In this document: piece by piece, positions 15,665-59,575 of the stretch
How positions within the stretch are numbered: the first letter of the stretch is position 1
Layout: the number at the start of each line of letters is the position of its first letter
Source: Nanobdellota archaeon
GTDB lineage: Archaea; Nanobdellota; Nanobdellia; Woesearchaeales; UBA11576
Length of the DNA: 64,000 bases
Reading direction: 5' to 3'
Assembly: GCA_042576705.1 (NCBI GenBank)
Contig: JBHPEY010000001.1
Location: 72,980-136,979, forward strand
Notes under the pieces: generated by a model
Database searches by the model: none
What the model saw: only the letters and a program-made list of their open reading frames with translations
What the model was told of the DNA's origin: nothing
Program-made: the position numbers and the translations under genes

Positions 15665-15940
15665 TTGATTGATAATGCAGCTTTGGTTGTAGGTGCAGAT
15701 GGGTTTATGACTGTAGTTTCAGAATGAGCACCAAAGCTGCTCTATCTTTTGGAGTATTGGATGGACCAAGCCTGGTTACTGATGTTGCGGCTTTATCTGA
15801 TTTTGTAGTGGCCGCAGCTTTAGTAATCAGGTTTGCGCATGGTGGCACTTCAAGAACTCTTCCCAAATTCGGAACTGATTCTGTTTCTATAGGGCATCGC
15901 ATTCAGTTTCTTAGGTCCGAATTTGTTTATTTATCAAAAA
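15665..15940 (+). repeat. Dispersed six-box intergenic element, copy A
   Basis: GCAGCTTTGGT(15677-87)-N42-ACCAAAGCTGC(15730-40); CAAGCCTGGT(15767)...ATCAGGTTTG(15835); CAAATTCGGA(15864-73)-N42-TCCGAATTTG(15916-25). Confidence 0.9.
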
Positions 15941-15965
15941 AAGAAGTCTGGTCTTCTGTTGGGGA

Positions 15966-16904
15966 TTATTTCTTCTTTGCTGCAGGTGCTGCTTTTCTTT
16001 CCCAATACTCCTGTGCTGTCCTGTACATCAGGATCCTTGAGAATACCAGGGCCGGCACGAATATCAGCGTGCCGAATACCATCAGCAGGAAAGGGTCGCC
16101 CCTTATGAAAGGGAGGCGCAGGAAGAGGTCTATAATCACGAAAAGCACTGCTATGAAGGCGAAGCTCTTCAGCGTCTTCGTGAACCTCTTTGTGCCGTAG
16201 ATGAAGCCCTGCTTGAAGTTCTGGAATGCGTAGCGGCTGGTCAGGGTGTAGCATAGCACGCCGAAATACCAGGTCACCAGTATGAAAAATATGAACAGGA
16301 AGTTTATGGTGCCTTCTCCTATTATCGGCGCTATGCTCATCTTCATTGCCAATGTGATGCGGACTGATATGAATATCCAGAATATGCTCAGGAAGTAGAA
16401 CGGCAGGGACTCCAATGCGAAGTTCTTCCAGAATACCAGGAATGGCAGCCTCTTTTTCTTCTCTGTCGCCATGCGGTATGCTATGTACCAGCTCAACCCC
16501 TGGAAGATTATCCAGAACAGGAAGGAGCACAGTATCAGCACGCCCAGGTACTTGAATATCACGTTGAGATGGTATGCGAAATCCGCGCTCTGGGTGACTG
16601 TGTTCATCCCTGCAGTCACTGTAGATGTCTGGTTGTAGATATTCATCAGGCCGCCGGTGGCCTCGCCGGTCATCTTCATAAGGGCTTCCAGATGCTCGAA
16701 CAGGGTGAACTGTATAAGTGTTATGACCGTGGATGTCGCTATCACGAACAGCAGGTCAGTGAGGATAGAGAGGAGCACCTGCGGCCAGTTTGTGTACCAT
16801 GATTTGAATGAGGTGCTGACCAGGTTGAATAGGTTGGATGTGCGTATGTCTGAGAGTATGGATGATGTGATTCTCTTTCCTGCTGATACCTTCTTTCGTG
16901 GCAT
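15966..16904 (-). CDS. Multi-pass membrane protein, last gene of the giant-protein operon
   Basis: About 6 TM segments; start moved to ATG 16904 behind AGGTGA; topology similar to 29444-30316. Confidence 0.8.
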   Translation of the reverse strand: MPRKKVSAGKRITSSILSDIRTSNLFNLVSTSFKSWYTNWPQVLLSILTDLLFVIATSTVITLIQFTLFEHLEALMKMTGEATGGLMNIYNQTSTVTAGMNTVTQSADFAYHLNVIFKYLGVLILCSFLFWIIFQGLSWYIAYRMATEKKKRLPFLVFWKNFALESLPFYFLSIFWIFISVRITLAMKMSIAPIIGEGTINFLFIFFILVTWYFGVLCYTLTSRYAFQNFKQGFIYGTKRFTKTLKSFAFIAVLFVIIDLFLRLPFIRGDPFLLMVFGTLIFVPALVFSRILMYRTAQEYWERKAAPAAKKK

Positions 16905-16918
16905 GACGTTCACCTATA

Positions 16919-17677
16919 TCAATATACGTCCATCTTCTGGTAAAACTCTTCTTCAGTGATGCCGAACTCGGCATAGCATGCGTCGAGCGACCTTTCACCT
17001 GACTCCTCAGCTATGAAACCGCAGAGCCCTGCATTTCTCGTCCCTACAGCAATGTCATAGAAGCAATCATCCTGGGAGAAATCACCTGAGATCATGGTCA
17101 TGTTGAAACACAGCTCCACATCACCGCCTTTTTTCGCAATCTCCATGAAGCAGGTGTCCTGCGAAAACTCGCCGCTCTGCTCACCAAGGCCATAGCATAA
17201 TGACGGCATATCATCCTTGATCGCTATGACAGCTATACACCAATCCCTTGACCTGGAACCTTCGACAGCCTTTATCATGTCACAATATTCCACCACAGAT
17301 GTCTTCCTTGCGAGCTGCCTGTAGCAATCCTCTTTGATGCTGCTTTCAGCGATCCTGTCACAGAAGCCAGGATCCTCGTTCGCCAAAGCCTGTGCAACAA
17401 GATCTGCACTGTCCGGGCCGGACGTTGCCCGAGACCTGCTTACAGCAGATATCTCTGCTTCCTCTTTTGCTGCATCCTCGACGAGAAAAGAGAATATAAA
17501 AAGTATAATGCCTGCCACAACGATGACACCGACAGCGATCAGTATCATCTTCTTGTCCAGTATCCCTTTCTGAGGTTCCTGCATAGTTGGTTGCTGCTGA
17601 GGATATTGCTGCTGAGGTTGCTGGGGATACTGCTGGGCAGGTCTCTGCACCCCTTGATTGTAATCAGATTCAGGCAT
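16919..17677 (-). CDS. Membrane-anchored protein with Q/P-rich N-terminus and Cys-paired repeats
   Basis: MPESDYNQ start at 17677, adjacent to the giant gene stop; QQYPQQ repeats, TM helix, about four C-x-I-x(5-9)-D-x-C-[YF]-x3-A repeats. Confidence 0.8.
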   Translation of the reverse strand: MPESDYNQGVQRPAQQYPQQPQQQYPQQQPTMQEPQKGILDKKMILIAVGVIVVAGIILFIFSFLVEDAAKEEAEISAVSRSRATSGPDSADLVAQALANEDPGFCDRIAESSIKEDCYRQLARKTSVVEYCDMIKAVEGSRSRDWCIAVIAIKDDMPSLCYGLGEQSGEFSQDTCFMEIAKKGGDVELCFNMTMISGDFSQDDCFYDIAVGTRNAGLCGFIAEESGERSLDACYAEFGITEEEFYQKMDVY

Positions 17678-17678
17678 T

Positions 17679-20600
17679 TTATGCACTCGTACATTTACAG
17701 GTCTGTGCTTTGGTCGGGCAAGCGCTGAGAAGCAGCGAGCAGACCTTCTGATTATCACCCTTATTGCAGTCATGGATGTTATTGATCCCGTCGCAGACCA
17801 GTTTCTTGAACTCAGCAGAAGTCTTGCTGGTGCAGAACTTCCTGTTATCCCTTGAAGACCAGACATAACACTCACCATCTTCAAGGCCATACACAGGATA
17901 GTAAAGCCCCTGCTCACCACAACTGCCCTTCAGTCTAACATCCACTCTATGGTAGACTGTGACACCATAATCATTCAATATATCGCTCGCAGGCGACCCC
18001 AGATACTCTCCCCTAAAACAACCAAGTGGAAGAGCTAAACCGCTCCAGCCGATACTAATCTTGCCTGACTTGAAGCATTCCTGCACCAATGCCTTGAATT
18101 CCCCGTTTGAAATACATCCAAACACACATTTGGACCCCACAACCTTATTGCAATAATACTTTTTCATCTCATAAGATGACAACGGTTTACAATCACTGGT
18201 ATCTGTTGTCAAACCGGGAACGCAATATCTGTTGCTTGGACATGGCTCAAGGATGGGCGTGCCTGTGGGAGATTTTTTCTGGACAGACTTATACAAGGTA
18301 GTCCCTCCCTTAAATACGCCAGAGGGTATGCTCGTAACCCCCGCACCACAATTGCCTGTAATCACTTCATCAGGCTTCCCCGGAATACAGCAGACATCAT
18401 TGATCGCCTTGCATGGCCTGAAAAAGTCGTCCTTAGCAGACTCTTGAAATACATCCAAAACAGTACCCTGGGCACATTCATTAGTATCTGAAACGCATCT
18501 GTACATAGTCTGTAGAGGCGGTCCGCAAGAATCAACAGGCGTCCTGGGAGTACAGCAGGCCAGGTAGGATTCCTTGCAGGGTATGAAATCGCCACCAGGG
18601 TATTGTGATGGATTCTTAACTGAATTCTCTGTACAATCATCAATATCTGCTACGCAACTGAGTTGCTCGTGCATGAGTCCGCAAGGTGCTCCAACACCTG
18701 TCGCGGTTCCTCCGCCACCAGGACTGGCACCGGGCGGTCCACCGACACCCGCGGGCTTGGGCGGGGGCTTTGGCTTTCCTGATCCGTCGATGCAGCACTG
18801 ATTTCCTGTTGGGCAGAGACCTGCGGGTTCTTTGGTAAACGCTGTTGTCGAACCCTTGCACGTGCCTCCTGTCCCAACGCAGAATGTGTCCTCATTAGGA
18901 GGCAGTTTTACGCTATTTCCATTGGCGTTCTCTGCCATCACATGTTTCAGGCTGCACTTGCTGAAGCAGTACATGCCTGTGTCTGCCTGGCCTGCCTTGT
19001 AGCACTCGCCCTCGGTGTTCTTGACTATCGTGCATCTTGCTCCTGCTGCCTTGCCGGCGCACGCCTTTGAAGCAGCCACCGTTGTATCAAGCTTGCTTAT
19101 CTGGAGCAGTGTGCTCTGCATCGCAGGAAGCTTGAAGATGATGCTGTCACCTCCCAACAAGACAAGACAGCCTGTGGGCGATGCAGGACACTGGAGAAAT
19201 GCTCCTGCTACTCCGCTCAGCTGTATTGCAGTGTCGGACTTTGTCCTGACCCCCATCGGCAGGACATCAACCTTCAACTCGACCATCTCTCCTGCTGCCT
19301 GGCCTGTCACCTCGACATAGAAATTGATTGATGAGCTACCCATTGTAGCATCTATACCTGTGATGGTCACTTTGGCATCGCTGCTCAGCCCGGACGCAGT
19401 CACGCCATACAATGAGGGCTGGCTTGCAGAGAGTATTATCGTCTTGCCTTTGGCATCTCCAAGGCCGGATACAGCATAGGCTGCAGTGGCTGTCAGTCCA
19501 TATACATGGATCTTCTTGGCATCTTCTGAACCGAGCGTCTTTATTATGAGAATGTTCGCATCAGGGATGTGCACATAACATTCCCTCTTTGTCGGGTGGT
19601 AATTGCCTTTCACAGTCGGTCCTGCTGACTTGGTGGTTTTCTGAGGCGTGGCTCCAGTTCCTGTCGGGACGACTGTCGAGGCACCCGGCGGGCAGCAAAG
19701 GACGTATTTAGAATCGTCCTCATTACACAGCTCCTTCTTGCATCCCTTTGCAGAAGAGCATTTATCCAGGTCCTGTCCTGTGCATGCAGCAGTCATGTCC
19801 TGGCATGTGTTTCCCGTCGTATTAGCATCACACTCCTTGCCGTCAGACTTTATCTGTATCGCCATGCCTGTTATCTTCGGAATCTGAGGCTCTGCTTTAC
19901 CAGATGCTGGAAGGTATCTTGACTCTGAGTGGATGTCTGTCACGGCTTTCCCAAATATCCCTGTCGCGCCAAGGCATTCGTCCATCCCTACGTCGTCTAC
20001 ACTTATCCCGGAAGGCTTGCCTGAAAAGCCCAGACCGGACAGGTTGAATCCTATAGTGACGCCAGGCTCAAGGAATGAACCGGGATCTGTGGAAAACTCT
20101 ATATCGAAACCGTCCTCGTTCTGAACATAATTATTCAGGACAACCTTCTTGAGTGGTGTCGGATCGCCGGGTATCGGGTTGTGCAGGCGTATCTGACCAC
20201 TGCTGCCGACAGGACTGTCATATGTAAGCTGCAGACCCCCTACAGGCATTGCAGCGACACCTGTCGCGCTGTCGAAACCTGAGAAGGTGAAGACAGGGTC
20301 CTGCCTGTTCAGCTTCAGCCTTATCACGCGTTCGTTGATGCTTGCGTAAGGCGTGGTGATGCATGGAGGCACGCCGCAGGTCGGCATATCCTCTCCATTC
20401 TTCTTTATCGTGAACTGGGAGTCAGGTATGAGACCGATCTTGTCCAGGCCTATGTTGAGTATACCATAGTCTGCTTCAGGGTTTATTGTTATCTTGAATC
20501 CATTGGACCTGTCATTCGGGTCTATCCAGGCGAAGTCAGTCACACTTATCTTATCTTCAGGACCAAGGCTGTTCGCGTCTGCCCAGAGGCCGAAGGTCTT

Positions 20601-23600
20601 GTTGTACCCGTCATTCTCCTGCCTAACTACCGCTGTCCTGTATGTCAGTTCTTCTATCGATCCTTCCGACGCTGCCTTTGTCCCTGATGCGCCGCATATC
20701 ACCTTGAACTTTATCTCCTTCTTCTGCAGCTGGTTGGTATCATAATCCACAAGAGGCCCTGATGCCATCTGGTAGTAGCCAGCGACTGAATCTGCGTCGC
20801 GCAGTTCAAGGTTCATGATCCAGGTCTCAGGGTCTTTGGCGCAGTTTGACGAACTCATCGTCGAGGTCGGCGGCTTGTATTGCATACCCACGACCTGCTT
20901 CTTTTCCACTGCCTTTCCAGGGCTTCCGCCGGCGGTCGTGACCCTGCCCTTGTTCTTGATAAAATCCTTGAGCACAGTGAACTTTATGCCGTAACAGGTC
21001 ACCTGCTGGTCCATTGCAGGCTCAGCAACCGGCTGTTTTTCGCAATTTGTGAATGACTTGCCGGTAAAGACGTATTTCCCATCCTTATCAGGCACTGCTT
21101 TCTCATAGGAGAAGAATGGCTTGGCTGACGTGCCGTCTGCCGTAGGATCAAAATATATACGTATCTGGAAAACAGATGACGAACCGACCTCTGCGCAGTT
21201 AAACTGAGGACGCGAGACGACGACCTGGCCAGGTATCGACTCAACACCAGGAACCCCCTCTGGAGTGCATGAGCCAGGTGCCTGCTTGCCGAAATGCTCT
21301 GACTTTATCTCAAACTCACCATTCTCCTTGACATGCTGCGGGAAGCTGTTGACATCGAACACACTGAAGTCATGGATCGTGTCCTGGTTCAGCCGCTCAC
21401 CGACAGTCTTCTTGCCTGCCGGCGGGTATATGACAGCGCTCTGGCCGTTCTTTATCGATGTTATCACAAGATATTTCGTGAATTCACAATCAGTGGTGCA
21501 GGAAGCCGCGTCCTTTGGCAGCAGCTGCTGCACCTTCACGTTGACTATATTATTATCACCAATGCCGAACGGCTGGTTCTCAGGCTTGGTAAGCTTTTCT
21601 GAAAGGAAAGCCGCGCTTCCTGTCGGTGGTATCTCCACACCACACTTGAAAGAGAGTGAGGGAATCTGGAACTCGCAAAGGCCCATAGGTGGTCCGCCAA
21701 TCTCGCGCACAGTGCCTTCACCCCTGCCCTGCAGGGATGTTGCAGTCGCCATGGTCCCGCCGAAGCCTGCTGTGTTTGTGGTGCCTGATGTACCTCCGGC
21801 ACTTTGGCTCACAGAACCTCCATAGCCACTAGTACCTGTCTGAGTAAGAGGCCTGTACTCCACGACAGCCTTGTCATACCTGAGCGGACCCTGTACTCCT
21901 TCGACGACAAAAAGCACCTCGTCAGTGCAGAACTGTCCCTGCCTTATGTCACCACTCTCAGGGCAGTTGCCGCTCTGGTGGCGCATTATCGGAAGCTGGA
22001 CCTGCCTGTTCCGTGAAGTGTAGTCTGCAAAAGTGCCATGGGCGCAGTCGCACTTTCCATCCTTTCCTCCTGGACAGATGCCGTTCGAGCATTCAAGCTT
22101 CAGGTCGAAATGCATGTCAGACCCTGCGAACACGCTGTAACCCACCCTGTAGACATGCCTTGCAAAGCCTGTCTGGGGATCATATGCCTGCCATCTCCTT
22201 GTGACCGGGGAGACAAATATCGTGCTGTTGACAGGCAGGTATGCTGCTGTCTCAAACAGCTGGCTAAAGTCAGTCGGCCATTCACCAGTAAACATGAATA
22301 TGCACGCGTCATGCAAAAGGTTCTCTGCAGCGAACGCTGTCGCGAAAAGGTTCCGGTCGCCGTATCTTGACTGCGCCTCTGTTGTTATGCTTGCGCTCGC
22401 GTCGGCGACAGCAGAGAAGACTCCGCTTATACCACCTATACCTATCCTCGCAGCAGACTTGCCTCCAAGCCTCTGCGTTATGCAGCTTATCGCCTCCTTT
22501 ATCAGGTCGCATATGTACTGGCTTATCAGCGCCTGGCACTGGCCTGCGCTTCCGTCGCCGGTGACGAGGATCGTCTGGAAGCACTGCTGCAACAGCGTGA
22601 GCATGTTACGCAGCTGCACAACCCAGCTCAGTATGCCTGAAAGGCAGAGCGTGACCACTGATTGTATGAAGCTACCTGCAGGCTGAGCAAGGTACTGACG
22701 GCCAGGCTCTCCGAGAAGTCCGGTTATCTGACGATACCAGTGCTCGAAATTCGTGGGCGTGGGTTTCCTCTTGGTCTTGCCGACCCGCATCTCTATCTTG
22801 CCTTCAGCAATCTGCTTCTCTATATCCTTCCTGAACTCCTTGAGATTGGAATCAAACTCTTTTTTCGCATCAGCACCTTCTTTCTCCTGGCTGATGTCTG
22901 CATTGTTCAGGACAGGAAACCATTCATTAAGGTTTTTTGACTGCGGGATGAAATACGCTCCTGTATTGATCTCCACCCTCCCGTCAGCCTGCACCTGGCC
23001 GAGATTCTTGACTTCGATCTTGGAATAGTATCCCCTGAAGACAGTCTTGGGACTTCCCTTCTCGTCTATATCGACGACATAGACAACATCATCACCTATC
23101 ATCTGCTCTGCAGACTTCGGATAGCCCTTGACCCATTTCAGGTTGTCAAGCACCACTGGCTGCGCCTTGGGCTTTGCACCCTTGGGCTGGCAGATCCCTG
23201 TGACGCCGCGCAGTATCGTCTGGCCTGCGCCGCACTTGCTCTTGTCCTCGGGATTCGCGAGGCAATAAGACATCTTGAGCTCATTGCTCCACATCATACC
23301 CCAGCCCCACTCCTGCATGTACTCGAACGGGCAGCAGGCAGGCTGCGGAACATGGCCTTCTGCACATACTTCCTTTGCCCGAGCATTGGTCTCGTAGGTA
23401 TTGTACATCTCCCTGACAGGTCCACTGCCGAGCTCTACGAACGCGCAGTCAGACTTTGCGTTCTTGTAGGGGGGTTTTTTCCAGATATTTTTCTCATAAT
23501 TGACAACATTACTGTAGTCTATCCTGGATGACGTGGTTGCAGCAGGCTTTGCACTTGAACTCTTGGTGGCTGCTGCCAATCCTGTTATCAGGGGAACCGT

Positions 23601-29442: not shown

Positions 29443-29443
29443 G

Positions 29444-38484: not shown

Positions 38485-38702
38485 AGTCCCGAACTTTTTA
38501 CTGTCTACAAACCCCCTGTAGGGTACATCCGAAATATTATGTGTTTATAAAGATTTGGTTTTGTTTATAAATAAAGGTGTGTGTTATAATATAAAAGTGT
38601 TTGTTTATTTACCGACGAGAAACTACTGTGTAGTGGTTAGGGATTGCGGTTGATGGGGGATGGTGGAGAGGGGTGGCAGGGGGAGAATAAGATGTTGTAG
38701 GA

Positions 38703-39050
38703 GCAGTTTTTTTGATTGATGATTCAGCTTTGGTGTTAGGTGCGGAAGGTGTTGTGAGAGATGGCGCAGTTTCTTTGATTGATGATTCAGCTTTGGTGTT
38801 GGGTGCATATGGTTGTGTGGCAATAGATGCTGTAGGAGTACCAAAGCTGATCCATCGTTTTGTAGTATTGGATGGAACAAGCCTGGTTACGGATGCTGCG
38901 GCCACATCAAATTTGAATAAAGCCGCAACATCTCACACCAGGCTTGCGTAAGGCCGCGCCTAAAGAATTCTTCCCAGCTTTCGAACTAATGTAGTCACTA
39001 CTGCGCATCGCATTAATTAACTCATGTCGAAAGCTGTTTATTTATCAAAA
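38703..39050 (+). repeat. Dispersed six-box intergenic element, copy B (with a 63-bp tandem duplication of its 5' end)
   Basis: TCAGCTTTGGT(38787-97)-N42-ACCAAAGCTGA(38840-50); CAAGCCTGGT(38878-87)-N49-ACCAGGCTTG(38937-46); CAGCTTTCGA(38975-84)-N42-TCGAAAGCTG(39027-36). Confidence 0.92.
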
Positions 39051-39130
39051 GAAAAAGTTGTTCTTATTGATGTTTCTTGTGCTGCTTCTGTTGTTGTGCT
39101 TATTGTTCTTGTTGTCCTTGCTGCTAATGC

Positions 39131-42249: not shown

Positions 42250-42290
42250 GAGTTATTTTTTGTTTTTTCTTTTTTGTTTTCTTTTTTTAA
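42250..42290 (+). terminator. T-rich archaeal-type terminator
   Basis: Long oligo-T tract directly after the stop at 42241. Confidence 0.55.
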
Positions 42291-42625
42291 TTCTTAATTC
42301 AGCTTTGATGGTGCGGGCAGGTGTAGCTGGAGAAGGAGCAGTTTTTCTGATAGATAATTCAGCTTTGGTTTTGGTTGCAGATGTCGTTATGAAGACCGGA
42401 ACAGCATGAGCACCAAAGCGGATGTTTCGTTGGGCAGTATTGGATGGAGCAAGCCTGATTGGGAAATACGCAGCTGTTTTATGTGTATTCGGTTAGGCAG
42501 CAGCGTCAGTAACAGAAATGATATAGAGAAAAAGGCCTTCGGCAACAACGATAGTCAAGTCAGTCTTAGACTTAGAATTCGTGGTTGCAGCGGCAGGGGG
42601 CTTGGTTTTTGCTCGTCTGGTTCGT
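42290..42625 (+). repeat. Dispersed element, copy C (alternative 3' module; 60-bp 5' duplication)
   Basis: TCAGCTTTGGT(42359-69)-N42-ACCAAAGCGG(42412-21)-N28-CAAGCCTGAT(42450); 3' part shares GGCCTTCGGC..CGATAGTCAA..CAGTCTTAGA with copy D. Confidence 0.88.
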
Positions 42626-42827
42626 GGTGTTGCTCTCCTTGCTCCTACCGCAAATTACTTAAACAACCCTGTAACTTTTCTTCCTCGCTGGACAGGACCA
42701 TTGATCCTTGTGAAGAAAACTTATCTTTCGGAGCTCACGCGATGATGACTGATGGGCGGGCTGAGGGATCTTTGGTCCGCCTTTTTTCTATGATACCAGA
42801 ATAAGTGTAAAAAAAAGGATAAAAAAA

Positions 42828-43343: not shown

Positions 43344-43346
43344 TTA

Positions 43347-44716: not shown

Positions 44717-45448
44717 ATGAAGCCGCACGAAATCCTCAAGGGAATAGAGATTGTTGACCTGGCACTCTATCTTAGTTCGGAGAAGGTGCTTGTCATCACT
44801 GACCTGCACATCGGTTATGAGGATGCGCTTGTCAAGCAGGGGGTGCTCGTTCCCAAGTTCCACTTCAGGGACCTTGTGAAGAGGGTCGAAGGGATATTCG
44901 AGAAGCTTGCAAAGGCGAAGAAAGAGGTTGACGTTGTGGTGATAAATGGCGACCTCAAGCATGAGTTCGGCAGGATAAGCGAGGAGGAGTGGCGCAATAC
45001 ATTGAAGATGATCGACTATCTTTCGCGGAGGTGTGAAAGGATACTGCTTGTGCGGGGGAACCATGACAAGGTGCTTGGGCCGATCGCTGAGAAGAGGAAG
45101 GTGCTTCTTGTGGATGAGTTTGTTGTGGGTGATGTTCTTGTGTGCCATGGGGACAGGATTCCTGAGATTCCTGCGTCTGTGAAGACTGTTGTGATCGGTC
45201 ATGAACATCCTGCTGTCAGTCTTGATGAGGACCTTCGGAGAGAGACGTACAAATGTTTTCTTGTGGGGAAGCATAAGAGGAAGAATCTTGTTGTGCTGCC
45301 TTCATTGCATCCGCTTGCTGAGGGGAGTGATGTCAAGAGAGAGAAGATGTTGAGTCCTTTTCTTAAGAAGGATATCGGTGGTTTTGATGTGTATATCGTC
45401 GCTGATAAAGTTTATGAGTTTGGTAAATTGAGGAAGATAGCGGGGTAG
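44717..45448 (+). CDS. Calcineurin-like metallophosphoesterase (archaeal ICC-like)
   Basis: DLHIG, GDLKH, GNHD, HGD, GHEHP motifs. Confidence 0.92.
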   Translation: MKPHEILKGIEIVDLALYLSSEKVLVITDLHIGYEDALVKQGVLVPKFHFRDLVKRVEGIFEKLAKAKKEVDVVVINGDLKHEFGRISEEEWRNTLKMIDYLSRRCERILLVRGNHDKVLGPIAEKRKVLLVDEFVVGDVLVCHGDRIPEIPASVKTVVIGHEHPAVSLDEDLRRETYKCFLVGKHKRKNLVVLPSLHPLAEGSDVKREKMLSPFLKKDIGGFDVYIVADKVYEFGKLRKIAG

Positions 45449-45720
45449 GGTCTGCTGCTGCCACCACGAGCCTGGTCGCTGATACCACGATGTCAAGTTC
45501 TAAGACTGTTTGACTATCGTTCTGGCCGAAGGCCATTTTCTTTATATCGTTTATTTTACCTGATGTTGCTGCCTCAACAAATTCACATAAAGCAGCTGCG
45601 TCTTCCCTAATCAGGCTTGTTCCATCCAATACTCCCGACGATAGATCAGCTTTGGTGCTAATCCAGTATCGATTGTCAGACCAACAGCCACCACCAAAAC
45701 CAAAGCTGAATTAAGAATTC
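45449..45720 (-). repeat. Dispersed element, copy D (reverse orientation; alternative 3' module)
   Basis: On the + strand: TCAGCTTTGGT(45646-56)-N42-ACCAAAGCTGA(45699-709); ATCAGGCTTG ending 45619; GAGCCTGGTC near 45468. Confidence 0.9.
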
Positions 45721-45764
45721 AAACAAACAAAAAAAGAAAACAAAAAAAACAAAAACAAAAAAAC
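45721..45764 (-). terminator. T-rich terminator of apt
   Basis: Oligo-A tract on the + strand just beyond the apt stop. Confidence 0.55.
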
Positions 45765-45776
45765 CTCTCTCTTACC

Positions 45777-46307: not shown

Positions 46308-46345
46308 CTTTTTATCCTCCTTGTTTCTTCTTGCCTTATTCTCGC

Positions 46346-47236: not shown

Positions 47237-47746
47237 TTGGAGAGTGTTTCTTTGAAAAGAAGACGGGGCAAGATTGAACGGCAATTGTATACGCTTCTGA
47301 ACAGGCTACAGGCTTATGTTCCGAACGCAGATGAACTAGGTGCGCTCGTAGGGTACTGCATAATAGAAAGCCTCCATGATTTCGATACAAATACAGGTTC
47401 TACGGAACAGGTCGAGTTTGAAGAGATCAAGGCAGTGTATAATGGTCTGGAGCAAGTCATCGAGTCAAGCAAAGAAAATGACGGTTATACGACACTGTGC
47501 GAGCTTAAGATGACTGCAGATCCCTGGATAATAGAATCACTCGAACCTGAGGCAGGGTATCAAAGAAAAAGCACTCTTGTCCAGATTGCGATGAACTACC
47601 TGCAAAGTTCCGGGAGAGATTTCCAGGACAAGCTCCGAAGGAAAGGGAAGCAGATAGTGTCAGATGTCACATCTCGCGGTCCGGTCACAGGAGCCAAGAA
47701 CAGCCTCTCTCGCGATTACAATCTAGTGAACATGATACTGAAATGA
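47237..47746 (+). CDS. Hypothetical helical protein
   Basis: 169 aa ORF, 14 nt upstream of the PhoH-like gene; start uncertain (TTG). Confidence 0.65.
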   Translation: MESVSLKRRRGKIERQLYTLLNRLQAYVPNADELGALVGYCIIESLHDFDTNTGSTEQVEFEEIKAVYNGLEQVIESSKENDGYTTLCELKMTADPWIIESLEPEAGYQRKSTLVQIAMNYLQSSGRDFQDKLRRKGKQIVSDVTSRGPVTGAKNSLSRDYNLVNMILK

Positions 47747-47760
47747 AAGGTGAAAGATAG

Positions 47761-49329: not shown

Positions 49330-49347
49330 ATAGTTATTGTTTTTTTT

Positions 49348-49625
49348 AATTCTTGATTCAGCTTTGGGAGCCGGACGGTTTTTTTAATTCTTAATTCAGC
49401 TTTGGTTATTGATTGATTTACAGGTATGACAATAGAGACAGTAGTAGCACCAAAGCTGAGGTAAAATTTGTTAGTATTGGATGGCGCAAGCCTGATTACG
49501 AGAGACGCAGCTGCTTTATGTGGATTTGTTTAGGCAGTTGCATTCGTAGCGTAAATTATATGCGGGGTAAGGCCTGCGGCCGGCATTTTAGTCAAACAGT
49601 TTGCAGCGACCTGGTGCTTGGTTAA
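49348..49625 (+). repeat. Dispersed element, copy E (38-bp partial 5' duplication)
   Basis: TCAGCTTTGGT(49396-406)-N42-ACCAAAGCTGA(49449-59); CAAGCCTGAT starts at 49487, 28 nt after the 10-bp box. Confidence 0.9.
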
Positions 49626-49661
49626 AATCATCTACACGAATGAGAAAAAGATAAAAAAATA

Positions 49662-52283: not shown

Positions 52284-52508
52284 CTCAATCTCCTCTTTGA
52301 CATATCACATTGGATAGAATCATCATATCTAATCTGATGCCTCTTCATATCACTTTAAGACAAGGTTGAAGCCAGGGTTTTCTTATAAAAAGGTTTTGGT
52401 GTGTTGTGGTCTGCAGGTTTAAAAAAAGGAAATATTCTTAAATAACCTGGTCCCATTTCCTTGAGAAAAGGGTGAATTCTAGTATATCCAGTACAAGAGG
52501 CGTAAGAC

Positions 52509-54068: not shown

Positions 54069-54132
54069 GAGAAAATATCTCTTTCCATATGTGCCAGAAA
54101 GCCTTAAATAATTCTATGCGTTGAAAATCTGC

Positions 54133-54753
54133 ATGAAACGGGTAGCATTCCACGGGACCAGAAACCTCAGCGAGATCATACATAATGAGGCTATAGTATG
54201 TCCCAGCCTCCAGACAGGAGAGGCTCTGTTTGAGAGGCATTCTGAGATATACAACAGGCTTGTCAGGGAGTTCGCTGAAAAGATAAAGGACAAGCTCAGG
54301 GAGCAGGGCAAGAGCCTGGAAAACGAGCCGTACTATGCCGCGTCAAACCGCACAGATTACATACTCGCAGATATAGTGATGCAGAACTATCATTTCTTTG
54401 GTGTGTCAGGTGATGCTGCCAGCAGATTCAAGGAGATGCGCAGGGGCGTGAACGTGTTCCTGTCCAATTATCTTGTCGCGGCGAATTATGCGCAAGGTCT
54501 GGAAAAGGGAGTGCTTGAATGCGTGATCGATTACACAAAGGTGACTAGCCAGCTGGACAATGGGTGGACGCTGTTCCCAGGCAGGGTAGGTCTTGATGAT
54601 GTGCGGTGTGTCTATGTTGAACCGTTCAATTCAAGAAGAGTGCGCACAGAACTAAGAAAGAAAGGATATGATACGCCTGTGAGAGATATCAACAGGAGGG
54701 TAGAAGTCAGTTTTAATGAAGTCAGTACTTTGCCTTCACAGCCTTATCGCTGA
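54133..54753 (+). CDS. Putative ADP-ribosyltransferase-fold protein
   Basis: AFHGT near the N-terminus, then GVNVFLS....AANYA.....VLECVID; start moved to ATG 54133; 3' end overlaps ZPR1 convergently. Confidence 0.6.
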   Translation: MKRVAFHGTRNLSEIIHNEAIVCPSLQTGEALFERHSEIYNRLVREFAEKIKDKLREQGKSLENEPYYAASNRTDYILADIVMQNYHFFGVSGDAASRFKEMRRGVNVFLSNYLVAANYAQGLEKGVLECVIDYTKVTSQLDNGWTLFPGRVGLDDVRCVYVEPFNSRRVRTELRKKGYDTPVRDINRRVEVSFNEVSTLPSQPYR

Positions 54754-55243
54754 TTATTGCAGAATTTCCAGTGCGGTCTTCTATAATGAGCTTGAGGGAT
54801 TCCTGGCCCCACATGACCCTGCCCAGTTTCTTTAGCATGTTCTTTGCCTTCTTCTTTTCAGAGTCGTCTTCTGCTTCGTCCTTGAGTTTTTCGATGACAT
54901 CCTTGAACCTTGTCAGGACGCCTTCTACATTCGATATGAAGCCTTCAGCATTGGCGCCAGGTTCCAGCGTGCCTATCCTTGGGATCTTTATCACGCCTTC
55001 GCTGGAACGTACTACCCGTATCTTCATGTCTTCTTCAGACTTGATGTCTAATGTGAACCTGGCTCCTGGTTTCTGTTCTGCGCATTCTATGTCTGACTTG
55101 TTGTATTTACAGTTGGAGCAGTTCATGCCGAAAAGAAATACTTTTCCGAAGTACGGGATCTCTACTTCCTCCTCGCTTAGAGTCAGGTTCGGGGTGTGGC
55201 AGAAGGGACACATTTCACCTGCCAGTGTTTCTGGGTCTCCCAT
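54722..55243 (-). CDS. ZPR1 zinc-finger domain protein
   Basis: CPFC...EIPYFG......C.NC.Y...D, VVRSS, IEPG...GFISNVEGVL.RF, D..GNSAI. Confidence 0.93.
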   Translation of the reverse strand: MGDPETLAGEMCPFCHTPNLTLSEEEVEIPYFGKVFLFGMNCSNCKYNKSDIECAEQKPGARFTLDIKSEEDMKIRVVRSSEGVIKIPRIGTLEPGANAEGFISNVEGVLTRFKDVIEKLKDEAEDDSEKKKAKNMLKKLGRVMWGQESLKLIIEDRTGNSAIISDKAVKAKY

Positions 55244-55400
55244 GTTTGTGCAGTAAGGGAGAAAAATTTATAAACGTTTTGATTGTGTTTTAAAGAAGGA
55301 TATTTCTCGTCGAAGGTTCGGATTTTGTGATTATTTTTTCGATTTGGGTCCGAATTGTCAGGTTGGATGTTGTTGGGTGGCGTTCAGTCACATAATCGAT

Positions 55401-55560
55401 ATGGCCTTTCGTGGAAAGGCACTGCGATGAGTTTAGCATAGACATTCAAGAATTGGGCGCGGTTTTTGCGACTCTGACAGCTCAGTCTTTGCTAGTATAA
55501 GGGGGGTGCTTCAGGCTCTGCCTGACGGCTTGCCGAATCTTCGATTCGGGAAGAGGCCAT
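55401..55560. ncRNA. Candidate GC-rich multibranch structured element
   Basis: ATGGCC(55401)/GGCCAT(55555) encloses GCCTTTC-GTG-GAAAGGC, TCAGGC-TCT-GCCTGA and CCGAATC-TTC-GATTCGG hairpins. Confidence 0.25.
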
Positions 55561-55745
55561 TTCGGTTTCCAGGGCGGGGGGCGGGAGAGCTACGAAACTT
55601 GTATAATTTACAATACTTAATTTTCTCAAAATACACTATTCGCAACAGAATCCGCCAAAACATAAAATCCAATGCAACAAATCAACACAGCTCTAACTCT
55701 ACAGCACCATCTTCAAGAAAAAGAAATCGTTAAAAAACAAAATAA

Positions 55746-56165
55746 TTACAGATCGTCTGCTGGTGCGTCGAAGTCGTGCGGTATCTCTGTTGACTCCCTG
55801 AATATCTGCGCGAAGCTTGGTGTCAGGGCTATCCAGTCATCACCGAATCCGGCAATGTCGCCTTCCACTGCTTCACAGGTCTTCTTCAGCTTGTTGATCG
55901 CCCGCTTCAGCTCTACCAGGTCCTTGTCCTTTAATGGCCTGATGTTAACCAGGCTGATCGTATATCCTTCCCTCAGCGCATCAAGAATCGGCTTGATATC
56001 ACCGAACTCCTCAATCACAAAAGGCCTCACAGTGATCCTTTCTTTTGATGGAGCAGAAACACCTTCAGGAGGAATCTCGACATAACCCTCTTCGCTTTCG
56101 CCAGGAAGCTGGAAATCATCAGAACGGGAAAACCTGCTCTTAATCTTGCCTATAAGCCTCTTCAT
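55746..56165 (-). CDS. sepF: Cell division protein SepF
   Basis: F.DIK.ILD.LREG..I.LVNI.PL......LKRAINKLK......GDIAG......TP. Confidence 0.88.
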   Translation of the reverse strand: MKRLIGKIKSRFSRSDDFQLPGESEEGYVEIPPEGVSAPSKERITVRPFVIEEFGDIKPILDALREGYTISLVNIRPLKDKDLVELKRAINKLKKTCEAVEGDIAGFGDDWIALTPSFAQIFRESTEIPHDFDAPADDL

Positions 56166-56495
56166 GGTCGTGCCTCCTATTTTTGTGAAACATGAAACGT
56201 TCCAAAACCCCTTCTTACGAGAAATACCCTGTTAATGAAATATTTAAACCTTTCGTTTTATCTGAGATTTGTTAGTATTTTAGAATAGGTAATTTTCTCG
56301 GGCTAAACACGGGAGAAGATGTGTTACGAAGGGAACACGAAATCAGGCTTTAGAAGCGTTTTAGAGGCTTTTTTCGGTTCTTTCTTGCCCGGGTTTATCT
56401 GCCATACATGCAAACAAAACCTTTTTATATCACTGCCAATTCAGGATTGCTAATTGAAACAGATTTAACTACATTATGTTATAAAGGTGCTTATT

Positions 56496-56786
56496 ATGAC
56501 GACAAGAATTGGGGGTATGCGAAGAAAGACTCGCAGTAAGCTCAAGAAAGACATTAGAGATAAGGGCAAGATCAGCCTGAGAAACTTCCTTCAGAAGCTG
56601 GAGGAAGGGGACCAGGTAAGGCTGCAGGCAGAACCCGCATACCAGAAAGGGATGTACTACCCGAGATTCCACGGAAAGGTCGGGGTAGTCAAAAGAAAGC
56701 AGGGAGACTGCTACAGCGTAACGATCAAAGACCACAACAAGGAAAAGCTTCTTGTTGTGCATCCAGTGCACCTGAGGAAGGTATAA
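56496..56786 (+). CDS. rpl21e: 50S ribosomal protein L21e
   Basis: RRKTR.KL.K..R.KG, G.Y..RFHGKVG.V....G..Y.V.I.D....K.L.VHPVHL. Confidence 0.95.
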   Translation: MTTRIGGMRRKTRSKLKKDIRDKGKISLRNFLQKLEEGDQVRLQAEPAYQKGMYYPRFHGKVGVVKRKQGDCYSVTIKDHNKEKLLVVHPVHLRKV

Positions 56787-57139
56787 TGACAAAGCCAGTA
56801 ATCGAGACCGAGACGCCAATCACGATGTCTGAATTGAAGGACGAGCTCAAGAAGATCAAGAAAAGGGATGAAGAGCTAAACTTCAGGGCAGAGAAGACAG
56901 AGGAATACCTGTCACAGTTTGTCGATCTCAAGGATAAAGAGGCGAAAGCACTCATCAAGAAGCTTGAAGCGCTGGACGTACCCAGGCTCAGGCCTGAACA
57001 CATAGTCAAACTTGTGGATATACTGCCCGCGACCATAGATGAGGTGAAGCTAGTCCTACAGGGCTACACAATAACAGTAACTAAAGAGAACTTGAAAAGG
57101 ATTGCAGATGCCATCAAAGATTCGATTGTCAAAGAGTAA
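56786..57139 (+). CDS. rpoF: RNA polymerase subunit F (Rpo4)
   Basis: EL...K....EL.F....T.EYL..F, KLVDILP.T.DE.K.VL; conserved position after rpl21e. Confidence 0.85.
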   Translation: MTKPVIETETPITMSELKDELKKIKKRDEELNFRAEKTEEYLSQFVDLKDKEAKALIKKLEALDVPRLRPEHIVKLVDILPATIDEVKLVLQGYTITVTKENLKRIADAIKDSIVKE

Positions 57140-57157
57140 ATACGGAAATATTGGAAA

Positions 57158-57724
57158 ATGGAACAGCCAATGCAGAGAGAGAAGGAAGAAGAAGCTATCG
57201 TGCTGGACTTCCTTCCGAACGGGTATCCATTCGACAGTAGGCCGAGCCATCTGAAGACTCCGATAGTGCAGGCTATCGGAAAAAAGCGTTTCACACTTCT
57301 TGAATTATGTCCTAAGAAAGGCGTGTTCTTACAACCCAACCAAGAGGTCTATATAGGGGAAGGTAAACGGGAGCAGATACATCACATCCTGGGTAAATTG
57401 CAGTATGATAAGCTGACCAATACTGGAATAAGCACTCTTGAGTTCGTGATCAAGGACATGGTGAAGGCCCGTGAGAAGAATCTTGTGGAGTTCTTCAACA
57501 AGGCACAGCCGATCACTATCCGTATGCATCAGCTGGAGCTTTTGCCAGGATTAGGCAAGAAGCATATGAATGCTATAATTGAGGCCCGGGAGGATAAGGA
57601 TTTTGATAGTTTTGAGGATCTTAAGAGCAGGGTGAAACTGATACCCGACCCTGAGAAGACCATCACGCGCAGGATATTGTTGGAGATGGAAGGGAAGGAG
57701 AAGTGGCATCTGTTTACTGATTAG
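57158..57724 (+). CDS. DUF655 family putative RNA-binding protein
   Basis: A.VLDFL..G, QAIG...FTLLE, VYIG.GKR, FFN.A.PIT.RMHQLELLPGLGKK. Confidence 0.92.
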   Translation: MEQPMQREKEEEAIVLDFLPNGYPFDSRPSHLKTPIVQAIGKKRFTLLELCPKKGVFLQPNQEVYIGEGKREQIHHILGKLQYDKLTNTGISTLEFVIKDMVKAREKNLVEFFNKAQPITIRMHQLELLPGLGKKHMNAIIEAREDKDFDSFEDLKSRVKLIPDPEKTITRRILLEMEGKEKWHLFTD

Positions 57725-57741
57725 TTCTGTTTTAATATACA

Positions 57742-59295
57742 GTGGATAAGTTTAAATATCAGTCTATGGTCTATAGTTCAACGGCGATGAATGCTAATAA
57801 TAATGAGGTGAGCCGTTTGAGTTCTAGAGATGATGTGCTATCCAGTTCCAGTTCTCCTAAGCATTATGATGTTGCGATAGTGGGTGCAGGTCCTGCAGGG
57901 CTTTTTGCTGCCTACGAGCTTGTGCAGCATAACATGAAAAGCACGGGTAGGAAGATTTCGGTGCTGTTGATCGACAAGGGCAAGGCTATCGAGACCCGCA
58001 AGAAATCAGAGGTGATGTGCGGGGTCGGTGGGGCTGGCACGTTCTCTGATGGGAAGCTGCATTTCACTCCTGTGCTCTCGCATGAAAAGATGCTGCACCT
58101 GTTCTCTGTGTCTGAGTACCAGACGTTCATCGATTATGTGGATGAGGTGCTGACTGAGTTCGGGGTCGATGCGCCTTACTATCCTAAAAGTGATTCTGGT
58201 GCGCAGGACCTTGTGGATGAGTGCAAGAAGCACGGGATACAGCTGTTCATCCGGAAGGCGCGGCACGTGGGAAGCGATAACCTGCCAGGGATCATAAAGG
58301 ACTTCCAGGACTTCATCGTGAAGAATGATGTCGAGTTGATGACAGAGACAGAGGTCGGGGATGTCCTTATCGAGGATGGGAGATGTGTCGGGGTTGTGTT
58401 GTCTGATGGGAGACGGGTGAAAGCTGATTTTACTCTGCTCGCGCCAGGGCGTGTCAATGCGCGATGGATGCAGGAGCTCTGCAAGGAGCATGGCATTGAT
58501 TTCGCCTATGAGAAGGTTGAGGTCGGGGTGCGGGTCGAGTTCCCGAGCGTGATAATGAAGAAGCACGCTGACATGATGTATGAGACAATATTCAGATTGT
58601 ATACACCTACGTTTGATGATCCTATCCGGACATTCTGTCCATGCCCAAATGGGATGGTGGCTGTTGAGGAGTATGATGGGTTCGTGTGCGTGAATGGGCA
58701 TAGTAATTCTGACCATAAGAGCGAGAACAGCAATTTCGCGTTTGTTACTGAGATCAACCTGACTGAGCCTGTTGAGAATACCACGCTGTACGGGAAATCG
58801 ATCGCTCTGCTTGCTACTACTATCGGTGGCGGGAAACCGATTGTCCAGAGGTTGACTGATCTGAAGGCTGGGCGGCGGAGCACCAAGGCTCGGTTCGAGA
58901 AGAGCTTCATGGAAAGGACTCTGATGGAGGCTGTGCCAGGGGATATCTCGATGGCGCTGCCGCATCGTGTGGTCACCAATATAATCGAGGGGCTTGAGAA
59001 ACTGGACAAGGTGATGCCGGGAATCAATTCTGATAATACATTCCTTTATGCACCTGAGATCAAGCTGCGTGGGAGCAAGATCGAGACCAGTAAATACCTT
59101 GAGACAGCTGCTGTTGAGAACCTGTTTGTCGCAGGGGATGGTGCAGGTGTTGCAGGGAATATTGTTGGGGCTGCTGCTACAGGGGTGATCGCTGTTAAGG
59201 GGATATTGGGAAAGGTGGTTGCAGGAAGAGCAGCAGAACCTGAGAAAGGCGATGTCCGTCTTTATGCGACAACAAAGACAGATATTCGTGAATGA
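57742..59295 (+). CDS. FAD-dependent oxidoreductase (uncharacterised FAD-dependent dehydrogenase family)
   Basis: VAIVGAGPAG, GVGGAGTFSDGKL, VEVGVRVE, RTFCPCP.G.V, VNGHS, GDGAG; true start probably downstream of 57742. Confidence 0.9.
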   Translation: MDKFKYQSMVYSSTAMNANNNEVSRLSSRDDVLSSSSSPKHYDVAIVGAGPAGLFAAYELVQHNMKSTGRKISVLLIDKGKAIETRKKSEVMCGVGGAGTFSDGKLHFTPVLSHEKMLHLFSVSEYQTFIDYVDEVLTEFGVDAPYYPKSDSGAQDLVDECKKHGIQLFIRKARHVGSDNLPGIIKDFQDFIVKNDVELMTETEVGDVLIEDGRCVGVVLSDGRRVKADFTLLAPGRVNARWMQELCKEHGIDFAYEKVEVGVRVEFPSVIMKKHADMMYETIFRLYTPTFDDPIRTFCPCPNGMVAVEEYDGFVCVNGHSNSDHKSENSNFAFVTEINLTEPVENTTLYGKSIALLATTIGGGKPIVQRLTDLKAGRRSTKARFEKSFMERTLMEAVPGDISMALPHRVVTNIIEGLEKLDKVMPGINSDNTFLYAPEIKLRGSKIETSKYLETAAVENLFVAGDGAGVAGNIVGAAATGVIAVKGILGKVVAGRAAEPEKGDVRLYATTKTDIRE

Positions 59296-59299
59296 GTGT

Positions 59300-59575
59300 T
59301 TTTTGATAAATAAACAGCTTTCGATATAAGCCAATGAATGCGATGCGCAGTAGTGGCTACAGGGGTTCGAAAGCTGGGTATTGTTCTTTCAGCGCGGCCT
59401 TGCACAAGCCTGGTCACTTATTCTGCTGCATTAAGAAAATTTGGTAGAGCAGCTGCGTTTTCAGTAATCAGGCTTGTGTCTGTCAAATCTCCAGAACGAT
59501 GGATCAGCTTTGGTGCTAATCCTGTATCTATTGTCATAACCACATCTGCCTCTAAAACCCAAGCTGAATTATTTA
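59300..59575 (-). repeat. Dispersed six-box intergenic element, copy F (reverse orientation)
   Basis: On the + strand: CAGCTTTCGA(59315-24)-N42-TCGAAAGCTG(59367-76)-N28-CAAGCCTGGT(59405)...ATCAGGCTTG(59476)-N28-CAGCTTTGGT(59505-14)-N42-ACCCAAGCTG(59557-66). Confidence 0.92.

Follow-up and report, generated by a model that had tools for sequence, protein, structure and literature searches.

The ten-base boxes that recur in the window (the whole 64,000-nt stretch of DNA analysed) pair with one another as the arms of hairpins, and the hairpins belong to a non-coding repeat. As judged from sequence comparison, the repeat appears to be undescribed and confined to one genus of tiny DPANN archaea (Woesearchaeota). 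Its copies are old; the arms, their pairing and the lengths of loops and linkers have been kept while the loop sequence has drifted. We propose, with a probability of roughly 40%, that it works like the bacterial REP/BIME/REPIN or BOX repeats, that is, as a DNA repeat that once spread, whose hairpins would be read by a lineage-specific protein and whose copies would be held by selection.

A search of the window with the pattern CAGCTTKGGT-N(38-46)-ACCAAAGCKG returned exactly six loci (copies A to F), with N = 42 every time. The pattern was matched in 0 of 100 dinucleotide shuffles, and the expected number of CAGCTTKGGT-N42-ACCAAAGCKG occurrences by chance was 0. This bears out the original observation of six copies with a 42-nt box spacing, as well as their intergenic location, since every copy lies between ORF calls. 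Box positions were taken straight from the sequence and confirmed the rigid six-box geometry described for copies A (10-42-10-27-10-49-10-28-10-42-10), B (10-42-10-28-10-49-10-28-10-42-10) and F (as in B, with a middle spacer of 52 nt). Copies C, D and E match A, B and F in the first hairpin, linker and third box only, and carry different sequence beyond. Thus, the box arrays are real, but what had been described as one six-box element comprises two architectures within a larger modular repeat system that was missed at that stage.

The basic unit consists of an oligo-T run with a leader (~10 nt); hairpin H1, whose 11-bp stem encloses a loop of 42 nt; a ~28-nt linker; and a third box. In Type 1 (copies A, B and F), two units are joined head to head in inverted orientation and their inner boxes pair to form H2. 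The result is a quasi-palindromic foldback of ~290 nt with three hairpins and the ends TTTTTGAT...ATCAAAAA. In Type 2 (copies C, D and E), a single unit is joined to an 85-nt repeat of unrelated sequence, present in 85–87 copies in the genome, followed by a tail of 20-nt tandem repeats. The parts of the six copies are as follows (L1 and L2, linkers; H3, third hairpin).

15660..15948, + strand: copy A, Type 1 (three hairpins)
15678-15687 / 15730-15739, + strand: copy A, H1 arms, loop 42 nt
15740-15766, + strand: copy A, L1 (27 nt)
15767-15776 / 15826-15835, + strand: copy A, H2 arms, spacer 49 nt
15836-15863, + strand: copy A, L2 (28 nt)
15864-15873 / 15916-15925, + strand: copy A, H3 arms, loop 42 nt; terminal GTTTATTTATCAAAAAAAG
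38700..39053, + strand: copy B, Type 1
~38703-38770, + strand: copy B, extra partial repeat of leader and box 1
38788-38797 / 38840-38849, + strand: copy B, H1 arms
38850-38877, + strand: copy B, L1 (28 nt)
38878-38887 / 38937-38946, + strand: copy B, H2 arms
38947-38974, + strand: copy B, L2 (28 nt)
38975-38984 / 39027-39036, + strand: copy B, H3 arms, loop 42 nt
42262..42640, + strand: copy C, Type 2
~42290-42345, + strand: copy C, oligo-T run and partial leader/box repeat
42360-42421, + strand: copy C, H1, followed by L1, the third box and an inner hairpin
42503-42585, + strand: copy C, 85-nt core repeat; the tail of 20-nt repeats ends at ~42640
45440..45765, - strand: copy D, Type 2
~45709-45765, - strand: copy D, oligo-T run and leader
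45647-45708, - strand: copy D, H1, with an L1 of 27 nt
45484-45563, - strand: copy D, core repeat; the tail reaches ~45440
49335..49625, + strand: copy E, Type 2
49348-49372, + strand: copy E, partial leader/box repeat
49397-49458, + strand: copy E, H1
49544-49605, + strand: copy E, degenerate core repeat, then one tail unit
59296..59590, - strand: copy F, Type 1
59505-59566, - strand: copy F, H1
59315-59376, - strand: copy F, H3 (H2 spacer 52 nt)

At the copy F boundary, the place where a TATA box would be expected for the HD-domain gene starting at 59591 is occupied by the reverse complement of the copy F leader (AATTATTTATTTAAAAAA). The palindromic linker TCCATC...GATGGA, earlier regarded as a conserved feature, is present in copy B; however, it is not conserved among copies and is absent from the consensus fold. 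Pairing of the L1 linker (CTATCGTT) with the core box AACGATAG was also considered and rejected, with one compensatory case (copy E) and inconsistency elsewhere. In the 85-nt core itself, secondary structure is supported for a 4-bp hairpin only. A "UUCG tetraloop" in this hairpin was discarded as a strand marker: the hairpin is GGCC-NNN-GGCC, and its triloop reads UNC or GNA depending on the strand, which leaves the strand unsettled.

In the source genome (1.70 Mb, 89% complete), 35 units were found by covariance model, in line with the prediction of many more copies. Copies are concentrated in the window, where 44 kb contain 6 of them and 0.9 would be expected (Poisson, P = 3.5e-4). Spacing varied little genome-wide: among 11 alignable full three-hairpin copies, the H1 loop was 42 nt in eight and 43 nt in three, L1 was 25–28 nt and the H2 spacer 49–52 nt, while L2 (28 nt) and the H3 loop (42 nt) were the same in 11/11. 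Copies in congeners had H1 loops mostly of 41–43 nt and H3 loops of 39–42 nt. The freely varying spacers that would have spoken against a constrained geometry were therefore found neither in the source genome nor in its congeners. Whole copies are 72–89% identical to one another, and across 29 dispersed copies arm identity reached 95.8%, versus 55.7% for the loops. Arms are uniform inside one genome and differ in complementary fashion between species: CAGCTTTGGT in the source genome, GGCTTTTGKT in G002 and G007, mostly CAATTTAGGT in G006 and RAATTTTGGT in the others.

Compensatory changes, seen both in the source genome and among congeners, support base pairing of the arms. In the source genome, 97.5% of the cells scored were paired, compared with 89.7% in shuffles, and double-sided changes occurred in 34 cells, compared with 12.9 (0 of 500 shuffles reached either value); slid controls were 26–43% paired. 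H3 shows a stepwise series, CAGCTTTCGA > CAGATTTCGA > CAAATTTCGA > CAAATTCGGA, with the partner arm matching each time, and H1 shows double changes at 7 of 11 pairs across congeners. Among the roles first suggested for the boxes, a fold formed in single strands thus fits well.

Outside the source genome, the element was detected in 9 of 11 congeners at 1–8 copies each, and no copies were found outside the genus. The unit architecture is kept across species that share only ~75–83% protein identity. Several features agree with the predicted behaviour of a non-autonomous mobile element. Terminal inverted repeats are present (TTTTTGAT(TCTT/AAAT)AA..CAGCTTT, with the complement at the opposite end; TTTTTCAATAG...CTATTGGAAAAA in congeners), chimeras and nested inserts occur among the copies, including a 51-nt two-hairpin module inserted within several of them, and one species has undergone a burst in copy number. 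Presence also varies at orthologous sites: one orthologous site is empty in the source genome, and G001 carries the element at that same site in inverted orientation. At the copy F locus, relatives have a different downstream gene and lack the element, and no exact empty site was found; without such a site for comparison, no target-site duplication could be defined. There are no near-identical copies, so that no recent movement is evident.

Element orientation and the type of intergenic region appear unconstrained, orientation being random relative to neighbouring genes. For the 85-nt core, orientation is clustered by contig (77/87, P ~4e-4) and tracks local GC skew (62:25), itself an uncertain guide to replication direction in archaea, rather than gene strand (39:48). 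A link to tRNA genes was dismissed: they adjoin several congener copies, but only 1 of 29 units in the source genome lies near one. Species genomes, metagenomes and viral contigs, a set without the source genome, were scanned for the pattern and yielded only unrelated chance palindromes with scattered spacings. From these scans the model picked only two weak loci, L132 (27 bits) and a pattern-selected hairpin in L202, the latter sitting in phage coding sequence.

A co-occurring mobilising gene had been suggested, but profile searches of the 89%-complete assembly found none of six families (Y1/HUH, TnpB, DDE_Tnp_1, rve, IS110 and reverse transcriptase). PF01797 (Y1) gave 0 matches there while positive controls were detected, and the sole recombinase found was one Xer-like tyrosine recombinase. 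Rfam, whose models cover C/D and H/ACA sRNAs, HEARO/omega RNA and ribozymes among others, returned 0 matches at the gathering threshold across the whole window; at E up to 10, copies B and D gave noise only (at most 20 bits versus cut-offs of 50–104). The pattern had not been recognised as any named family, and no match to an IS end, a MITE end, an Rfam family or a pseudogene was found.

Under the REP- or BOX-like reading, the element would be a non-autonomous DNA repeat that spread in the past. Its hairpins would arise in DNA exposed as single strands at the replication fork, or in any read-through transcript. A lineage-specific protein would recognise them from the sequence of the arms and the length of the loop. 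Old copies with fixed arms, pairing and loop lengths, together with species-specific arms, point to such a trans-acting reader. Because no mobilising enzyme of the six families searched was found in the assembly, the copies are presumably now kept in place by selection and are not moving. It is rather unlikely that the hairpins serve as DNA (or RNA) substrate for a family of archaeal proteins so far unrecognised, either a new single-strand hairpin recombinase/transposase or a domesticated descendant that employs strand-oriented hairpins in replication or organisation of the chromosome. In that case the protein would read the arms and measure a loop of 42 nt, and the fixed 42/28/42 geometry would record the footprint that a defined nucleoprotein complex leaves on a pair of inverted units.

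The same hairpins could possibly belong to a structured RNA, although we consider this doubtful. They would be a small RNA family with its own promoter or part of neighbouring transcripts, serving as a protein platform, an exonuclease barrier or a processing signal. Covarying stems and length-constrained loops are typical of functional RNAs, and copies have been retained in a streamlined genome. Strand evidence is divided. Modules fused upstream of the 85-nt core favour one strand, both in wobble pairs (GU 15 vs AC 3) and in fold energies (-77 vs -71 and -84 vs -68 kcal/mol), and on that strand the H1 loop is strongly G+T-rich and C-poor (C 10%, G 31%), as expected of a coding or non-template strand. 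Type 1 stems, in contrast, contain 361 Watson-Crick pairs with only 5 GU (~1%) and 3 AC, wobbles being equally rare on either strand, and fold equally well on both (-46.0 and -47.7 kcal/mol); this symmetry fits pairing at the DNA level or on two strands better than a one-strand RNA. The absence of any Rfam match even at E = 10 also counts against an RNA, and random orientation relative to neighbouring genes against a UTR role. Archaeal small-RNA genes would show a promoter at a fixed upstream distance and oligo-T downstream, and neither was found. A TATA matrix derived from the genome gave a sharp motif peaking 31–32 nt before start codons, yet revealed no consistent inward-facing box at a fixed distance upstream of the element on either strand, and a promoter within the core was rejected on its negative score. 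An oligo-T run is the usual archaeal terminator; here it precedes the element instead of following it, and does so on both strands of Type 1.

That the repeat is a relic without function seems quite unlikely. It would be an extinct MITE-like family whose inverted repeats stay perfect through template switching in quasi-palindromes and not through selection. Template-switch correction of quasi-palindromes is known in bacteria, and the near-perfect Watson-Crick stems without wobble intermediates, the age of all copies and the lack of a transposase among the families searched would all agree with it. Template switching, however, keeps arms complementary, not identical in 29 dispersed copies, would not bar indels in L2 and the loops, and leaves the architecture shared by such distant species unaccounted for. 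The phased protein-binding array on duplex DNA that had been suggested, with a dimeric or multimeric protein contacting boxes on one helix face, fits poorly and is highly unlikely. Spacings are rigid, with box starts 52 bp apart (~5 turns) and hairpin centres 93.5 bp apart (~9 turns); the arm sequence is invariant in the genome, and half-sites of a homodimer would co-change between species. But complementary arm variants coexist in one genome (five in H3; TTT/AAA and TTC/GAA in H1); one protein could not read all of these, and base pairing accounts for them. Nor does the H2 spacing of 59 bp amount to a whole number of turns, and differences of 1–3 nt are tolerated in congeners.

Least credible, and largely refuted, is that the information lies in the loops or in an ORF, as a small protein or as guide-like 42-nt loops (CRISPR spacers, bridge or omega RNAs). 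In most copies H1 is spanned by an open frame, SFG-14 aa-TKA, and copy F has an ATG-to-stop frame of 80 aa, yet loop variability lacks three-base periodicity (1.12, 1.09 and 1.12 bits by phase) and upstream frames are stop-broken or shifted in most copies; the reverse strand read as a small protein (SFG...TKAELRIKK) was rejected on the same grounds, with no periodicity and broken frames. Variable loops of fixed length would suit guides or, in a CRISPR-like reading, the palindromic repeats with variable spacers that had been suggested. The loops, however, share homology among themselves, with 56% identity and the conserved core TTTGACAATAGA; elsewhere in the genome they match nothing longer than 14–16 nt and have no targets. 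Searches for TnpB and IS110 found neither.

The genomes of DPANN archaea are among the smallest of any cell, and because of this any non-coding DNA they keep needs explaining. Here ~35 hairpin units, 85–87 cores and further modules together account for a few per cent of the 1.7 Mb. Discovery of a reader for the REP- or BOX-like repeat could bring to light a new enzyme that recognises hairpins, or an archaeal system for organising the chromosome; were the elements RNA, they would form a new, DPANN-specific RNA class. With the covariance models and coordinates, annotators can mask these loci, at which ORF finders call spurious genes of 80–160 aa.

Among known systems, CRISPR arrays have identical repeats in tandem, parted by fixed-length spacers that are unrelated, whereas the element's copies are dispersed singly and its loops are homologous. 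Terminal inverted repeats are shared with MITEs, although no related IS transposase was found (DDE_Tnp_1, rve, IS110, TnpB and Y1 searched) and no target-site duplication is definable. Integron attC sites resemble the element in having single-strand hairpins that would be recognised by structure, a variable central loop and an orientation apparently tied to the replication strand; the element differs in its fully paired arms and single copies, with no cassette arrays, integron integrase or extrahelical-base signature. BOX (Streptococcus pneumoniae, boxA-boxB(n)-boxC), ERIC and Correia repeats are likewise modular, strongly folding and intergenic, without a transposase of their own. As in these families, varied 5' modules of the element join one 3' core, the number of tandem sub-repeats varies and small hairpin modules are nested. 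There is no sequence relation to them, and nothing in them corresponds to the element's rigid loop and linker lengths or to its three-hairpin symmetry. Transcript effects of Correia and BOX are supported by experiment. REP palindromes are short and imperfect, about 20–40 nt. Their loops are short, whereas the element's stems close 42-nt loops, and its unit (~120 nt) and doublet (~290 nt) exceed those of REP/REPIN (~35 and ~100 nt). The element also lacks a conserved GTAG-type 5' tetranucleotide, its host is archaeal, and no RAYT or Y1 gene, which in REP systems usually has REPs on its flanks, was found in the 89%-complete source genome. With bacterial REP, BIME and REPIN sequences it nevertheless shares palindromes scattered between genes in tens to hundreds of copies, strand-symmetric Watson-Crick pairing, a doublet formed by two inverted units, orientation independent of genes, and arms that are uniform per genome and differ between species, as REPs do together with their cognate enzyme.

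The pattern CAGCTTKGGT-N(38-46)-ACCAAAGCKG matched the window at exactly the six intergenic loci (copies A-F) of the original prediction, with the claimed gap of 42 nt at 6/6 loci, and gave 0 matches in 100 shuffles. The forward strand of the element is the plus strand for A, B, C and E and the minus strand for D and F. Positions read directly from the sequence confirmed the six-box geometry of A, B and F (10-42-10-27/28-10-49/52-10-28-10-42-10); C, D and E match these only in first hairpin, linker and third box. The expectation of many more copies genome-wide was borne out by a covariance model of the unit (oligo-T run with leader, hairpin, linker and third box), which found 35 in the source genome. 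The window (C1:72980-136979 of an assembly of 1.70 Mb in 77 contigs, 89% complete, 48% GC) is enriched, with 6 copies in 44 kb versus 0.9 expected (P = 3.5e-4). Genes adjoining the elements are unrelated housekeeping genes (MetRS, PPDK, rubrerythrin, PhoH, FAD enzyme, HD protein).

Two architectures were distinguished: Type 1 (A, B, F and about eight more copies) and Type 2 (C, D, E and about 15 more). Their parts, with hairpins H1-H3 and linkers L1 and L2, are listed below; unprefixed coordinates refer to the window, and C numbers to contigs of the source genome (G000).

Type 1, order: oligo-T run and leader (TTTTTGATTCTTAATT), H1, L1, H2, L2, H3, then GTTTATTTATCAAAA
Type 1, H1: stem of 11 bp, loop of 42 nt
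Type 1, H2: outer stem CAAGCCTGRT/AYCAGGCTTG and inner GCNGC stem
Type 1, H3: stem of 10 bp, loop of 42 nt
Type 2, order: one unit, inner hairpin, 85-nt core, one to six 20-nt tandem units (GCAGCGRCCTGGTGCKTGGT)
About 15620-15660 and about 38610-38700: G-run tract (e.g. GGGTGGTGGGGTAGGGG)
38703-38770 (B), 42290-42345 (C), 49348-49372 (E): partial tandem duplications
42503-42585; 45484-45563 (minus strand); 49544-49605: core
About 42586-42640 and 45440-45483: 20-nt tandem tails after the core; best example G000:C18, about 18700-18830
G000 C15:19650-19850, C7:26400-26650, C30:12150-12330: examples of further modules 5' of the core

Once reverse-complemented, the H3 half of Type 1 is similar to its H1 half (TTTTGATAAATAAACAGCTTTCGA-N42-TCGAAAGCTG-N28-CAAGCCTG), so Type 1 consists of two inverted units with paired inner boxes; loops and linkers of the halves are equal in length and unrelated in sequence. 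Before most H1 leaders genome-wide, a 30-90-nt tract rich in forward-strand G runs, homologous in part between copies, precedes the oligo-T run and could form G-quadruplexes. The partial duplications, which repeat the oligo-T run, leader and box 1 plus about 30 nt, immediately precede B, C and E; their period is about 69 nt at B.

The boxes are paired hairpin arms. The consensus fold of the 11 Type 1 copies in the source genome comprised 37 pairs, with 97.5% of cells paired and double-sided changes in 11 pairs (34 cells). Shuffles gave 89.7% paired and 12.9 double-change cells, and 0/500 reached the observed value for either measure; sliding the partners by 1-3 columns lowered pairing to 26-43%. 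The H3 arm variants form a stepwise series with a perfect partner for each, and addition of congener copies revealed double changes in 7 of the 11 H1 pairs.

Lengths were conserved as well. In the same 11 copies, the H1 loop was 42 nt in 8 and 43 nt in 3, L1 25-28 nt and the H2 spacer 49-52 nt; L2 was 28 nt and the H3 loop 42 nt in 11/11. Copies of the source genome were only 72-89% identical overall, and between copies identity was 95.8% in the H1 arms, 55.7% in the loops and 65.4% in L1; because of this divergence, the lack of indels in L2 and the loops does not reflect mere youth. Spacer lengths do not vary freely among congeners, the point on which the original prediction had staked itself: H1 loops, counted from conserved GGT to ACC, are mostly 41-43 nt (mode 42), apart from two 16-nt deletion variants, and H3 loops 39-42 nt. 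Loop length is therefore constrained, yet not absolute, across the genus. Arm sequence is typical of each genome: CAGCTTTGGT in the source genome, GGCTTTTGKT in G002 and G007, CAATTTAGGT in most copies of G006 and RAATTTTGGT in other genomes. Arms that are uniform within a genome, and changed in a complementary way from one genome to another, suggest that a reader acting in trans co-evolves with its site. Arms, pairing and lengths are all under constraint.

With divergent copies included in the model, the unit was found in 9 of the 11 congeneric species (1-8 copies each) and in none of six genomes from four other genera of the family; the first covariance model found none in 43 genomes of the order's other families. 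Scans for the exact pattern, run on species genomes, metagenomes and viral contigs with the source genome left out, returned chance palindromes only. Many congener copies have a short form (leader TTTTTCAATAGAA, H1, L1, mini-hairpin), and at least four congeners have the full three-hairpin form. The core shows the same range, with 85 copies in the source genome; 4 of 11 congeners have 1-6 weak matches, and outside the genus there was none.

The core (GCGCTTCAGGTAAAAGAAACGATATAG...GGCC-TNC-GGCC...AACGATAGTCAGACAGTCTTAGAAC, also given as GTAAAAGAAACGATATAG...GGCC-TNC-GGCC...AACGATAGTCAGACAGTCTTAGAAC) is, at 85-87 copies, the commonest repeat of the source genome; within it, only a 4-bp hairpin has structural support. 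Three other conserved modules of 150-250 nt, all strongly folding (13, 9 and 6 copies), are always found directly 5' of a core. Tail units end in ...CTTGGT or ...CCTGGT; this likeness to the H1 and H2 5' arms explains why the boxes had looked related in the original prediction. A two-hairpin module of about 50 nt (TTGCAACCGTTCGGTTGCAGGGTTGTCTGCGGCTGACGCCTTAGCCAAC) is inserted between H2 and the core in several Type 2 copies and inside H1 itself in one copy (C1:63871-64037); the copies in this window lack it. The build of the repeat is modular, and the repeat itself is real, non-coding and limited to one genus.

Across the whole genome (476 upstream regions), the promoter motif ATTTATAAAC has a sharp peak 31-32 nt ahead of start codons, which indicates mostly leaderless mRNAs and fits an archaeon of that kind. 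The TATA matrix from these regions found no consistent promoter directed into the element; an oligo-T run stands in front of Type 1 on both strands. At copy F (59567-59593), the leader in reverse complement (AATTATTTATTTAAAAAA) falls some 20-30 nt ahead of the ATG (59591) of the HD-domain gene, the TATA-box position for leaderless mRNAs in this genome, and this element end may supply a promoter for that gene. A TTTTTAAAT promoter with tRNA-like genes (GCCGCCGTGGCA...) behind it is found 30-90 nt downstream of several congener copies (L163, L167, L171, L180, L187; L094 is G000:C18:11686-14801). The tRNA-like genes are missed by ARAGORN, Rfam detects two only (L171, L094), and they are probably multi-intron tRNAs.

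Orientation relative to neighbouring genes is unconstrained, as is the type of region (convergent, tandem, divergent). The unit lies just 3' of the same membrane-protein gene in four congeners and is absent from the orthologous site of the source genome (C4, about 26300); just 3' of another shared gene, Type 1 copies of the source genome and G001 have opposite orientations. Of the mobile enzymes proposed as partners, a tyrosine recombinase was present, as a single Xer-like protein, and the Y1 transposase was not found; Y1, TnpB, DDE_Tnp_1, rve, IS110 and reverse transcriptase were all searched for without a match in the 89% complete assembly. We favour, at a probability of about 0.42, a REP/BIME/REPIN- or BOX-like element: its hairpins would form in single-stranded nucleic acid and be read by a lineage-specific protein, and it would once have spread as a non-autonomous element that is now retained. 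A functionless relic, its palindromes maintained by template switching, seems unlikely to us, and a binding array on duplex DNA more unlikely still.

The main rival is a role at the RNA level, which we consider possible and somewhat less probable than the single-strand reading. In Type 1, wobble pairs are nearly absent and symmetric (GU 5, AC 3, Watson-Crick 361), and neither strand folds better than the other (-46.0 and -47.7 kcal/mol). The forward strand is favoured by the 5' modules ahead of the core (GU 15, AC 3); two of the three show this in both G-U counts and fold energy. A 'UUCG tetraloop' was rejected as a strand argument, being in the wrong register: the core hairpin has 4 bp and a triloop that reads UNC on the forward strand and GNA on the reverse. 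GNA triloops are very stable DNA mini-hairpins, so the triloop points the opposite way. On the forward strand, the H1 loop is poor in C and rich in G+T. Core copies cluster in orientation by contig (majority orientation in 77/87, P about 4e-4); with elements masked, the core forward strand matches the locally G-rich strand 62:25, and it shows no such match to the strand of local genes (39:48). Type 1, a symmetric element, is oriented 6:6.

Coding or guide-like readings are very improbable. A small protein was considered, because the reverse strand has an open frame, SFG-14 aa-TKA, and was rejected: loop variability by codon phase (1.12, 1.09, 1.12 bits) has no three-base periodicity, and in most copies stops or shifts break the upstream frames. 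Rfam gave no match at gathering score, and only noise when E was relaxed to 10. The elements are overlapped by mechanical ORFs of 80-158 aa, artefacts of skewed composition that would become false gene calls:

15724-16200, plus strand: artefact ORF
38609-38905, minus strand: artefact ORF
42406-42804, plus strand: artefact ORF
45363-45629, minus strand: artefact ORF
59338-59580, plus strand: artefact ORF

Tests of defining features separate the element from REP/RAYT, strict-sense MITEs, CRISPR, attC and any Rfam family. It belongs to a known general kind, the dispersed palindromic intergenic repeats, as a family not described before. It is unusual in that constraint persists without a detectable mobilising enzyme, and in that two inverted units unrelated in sequence keep the same loop and linker lengths.
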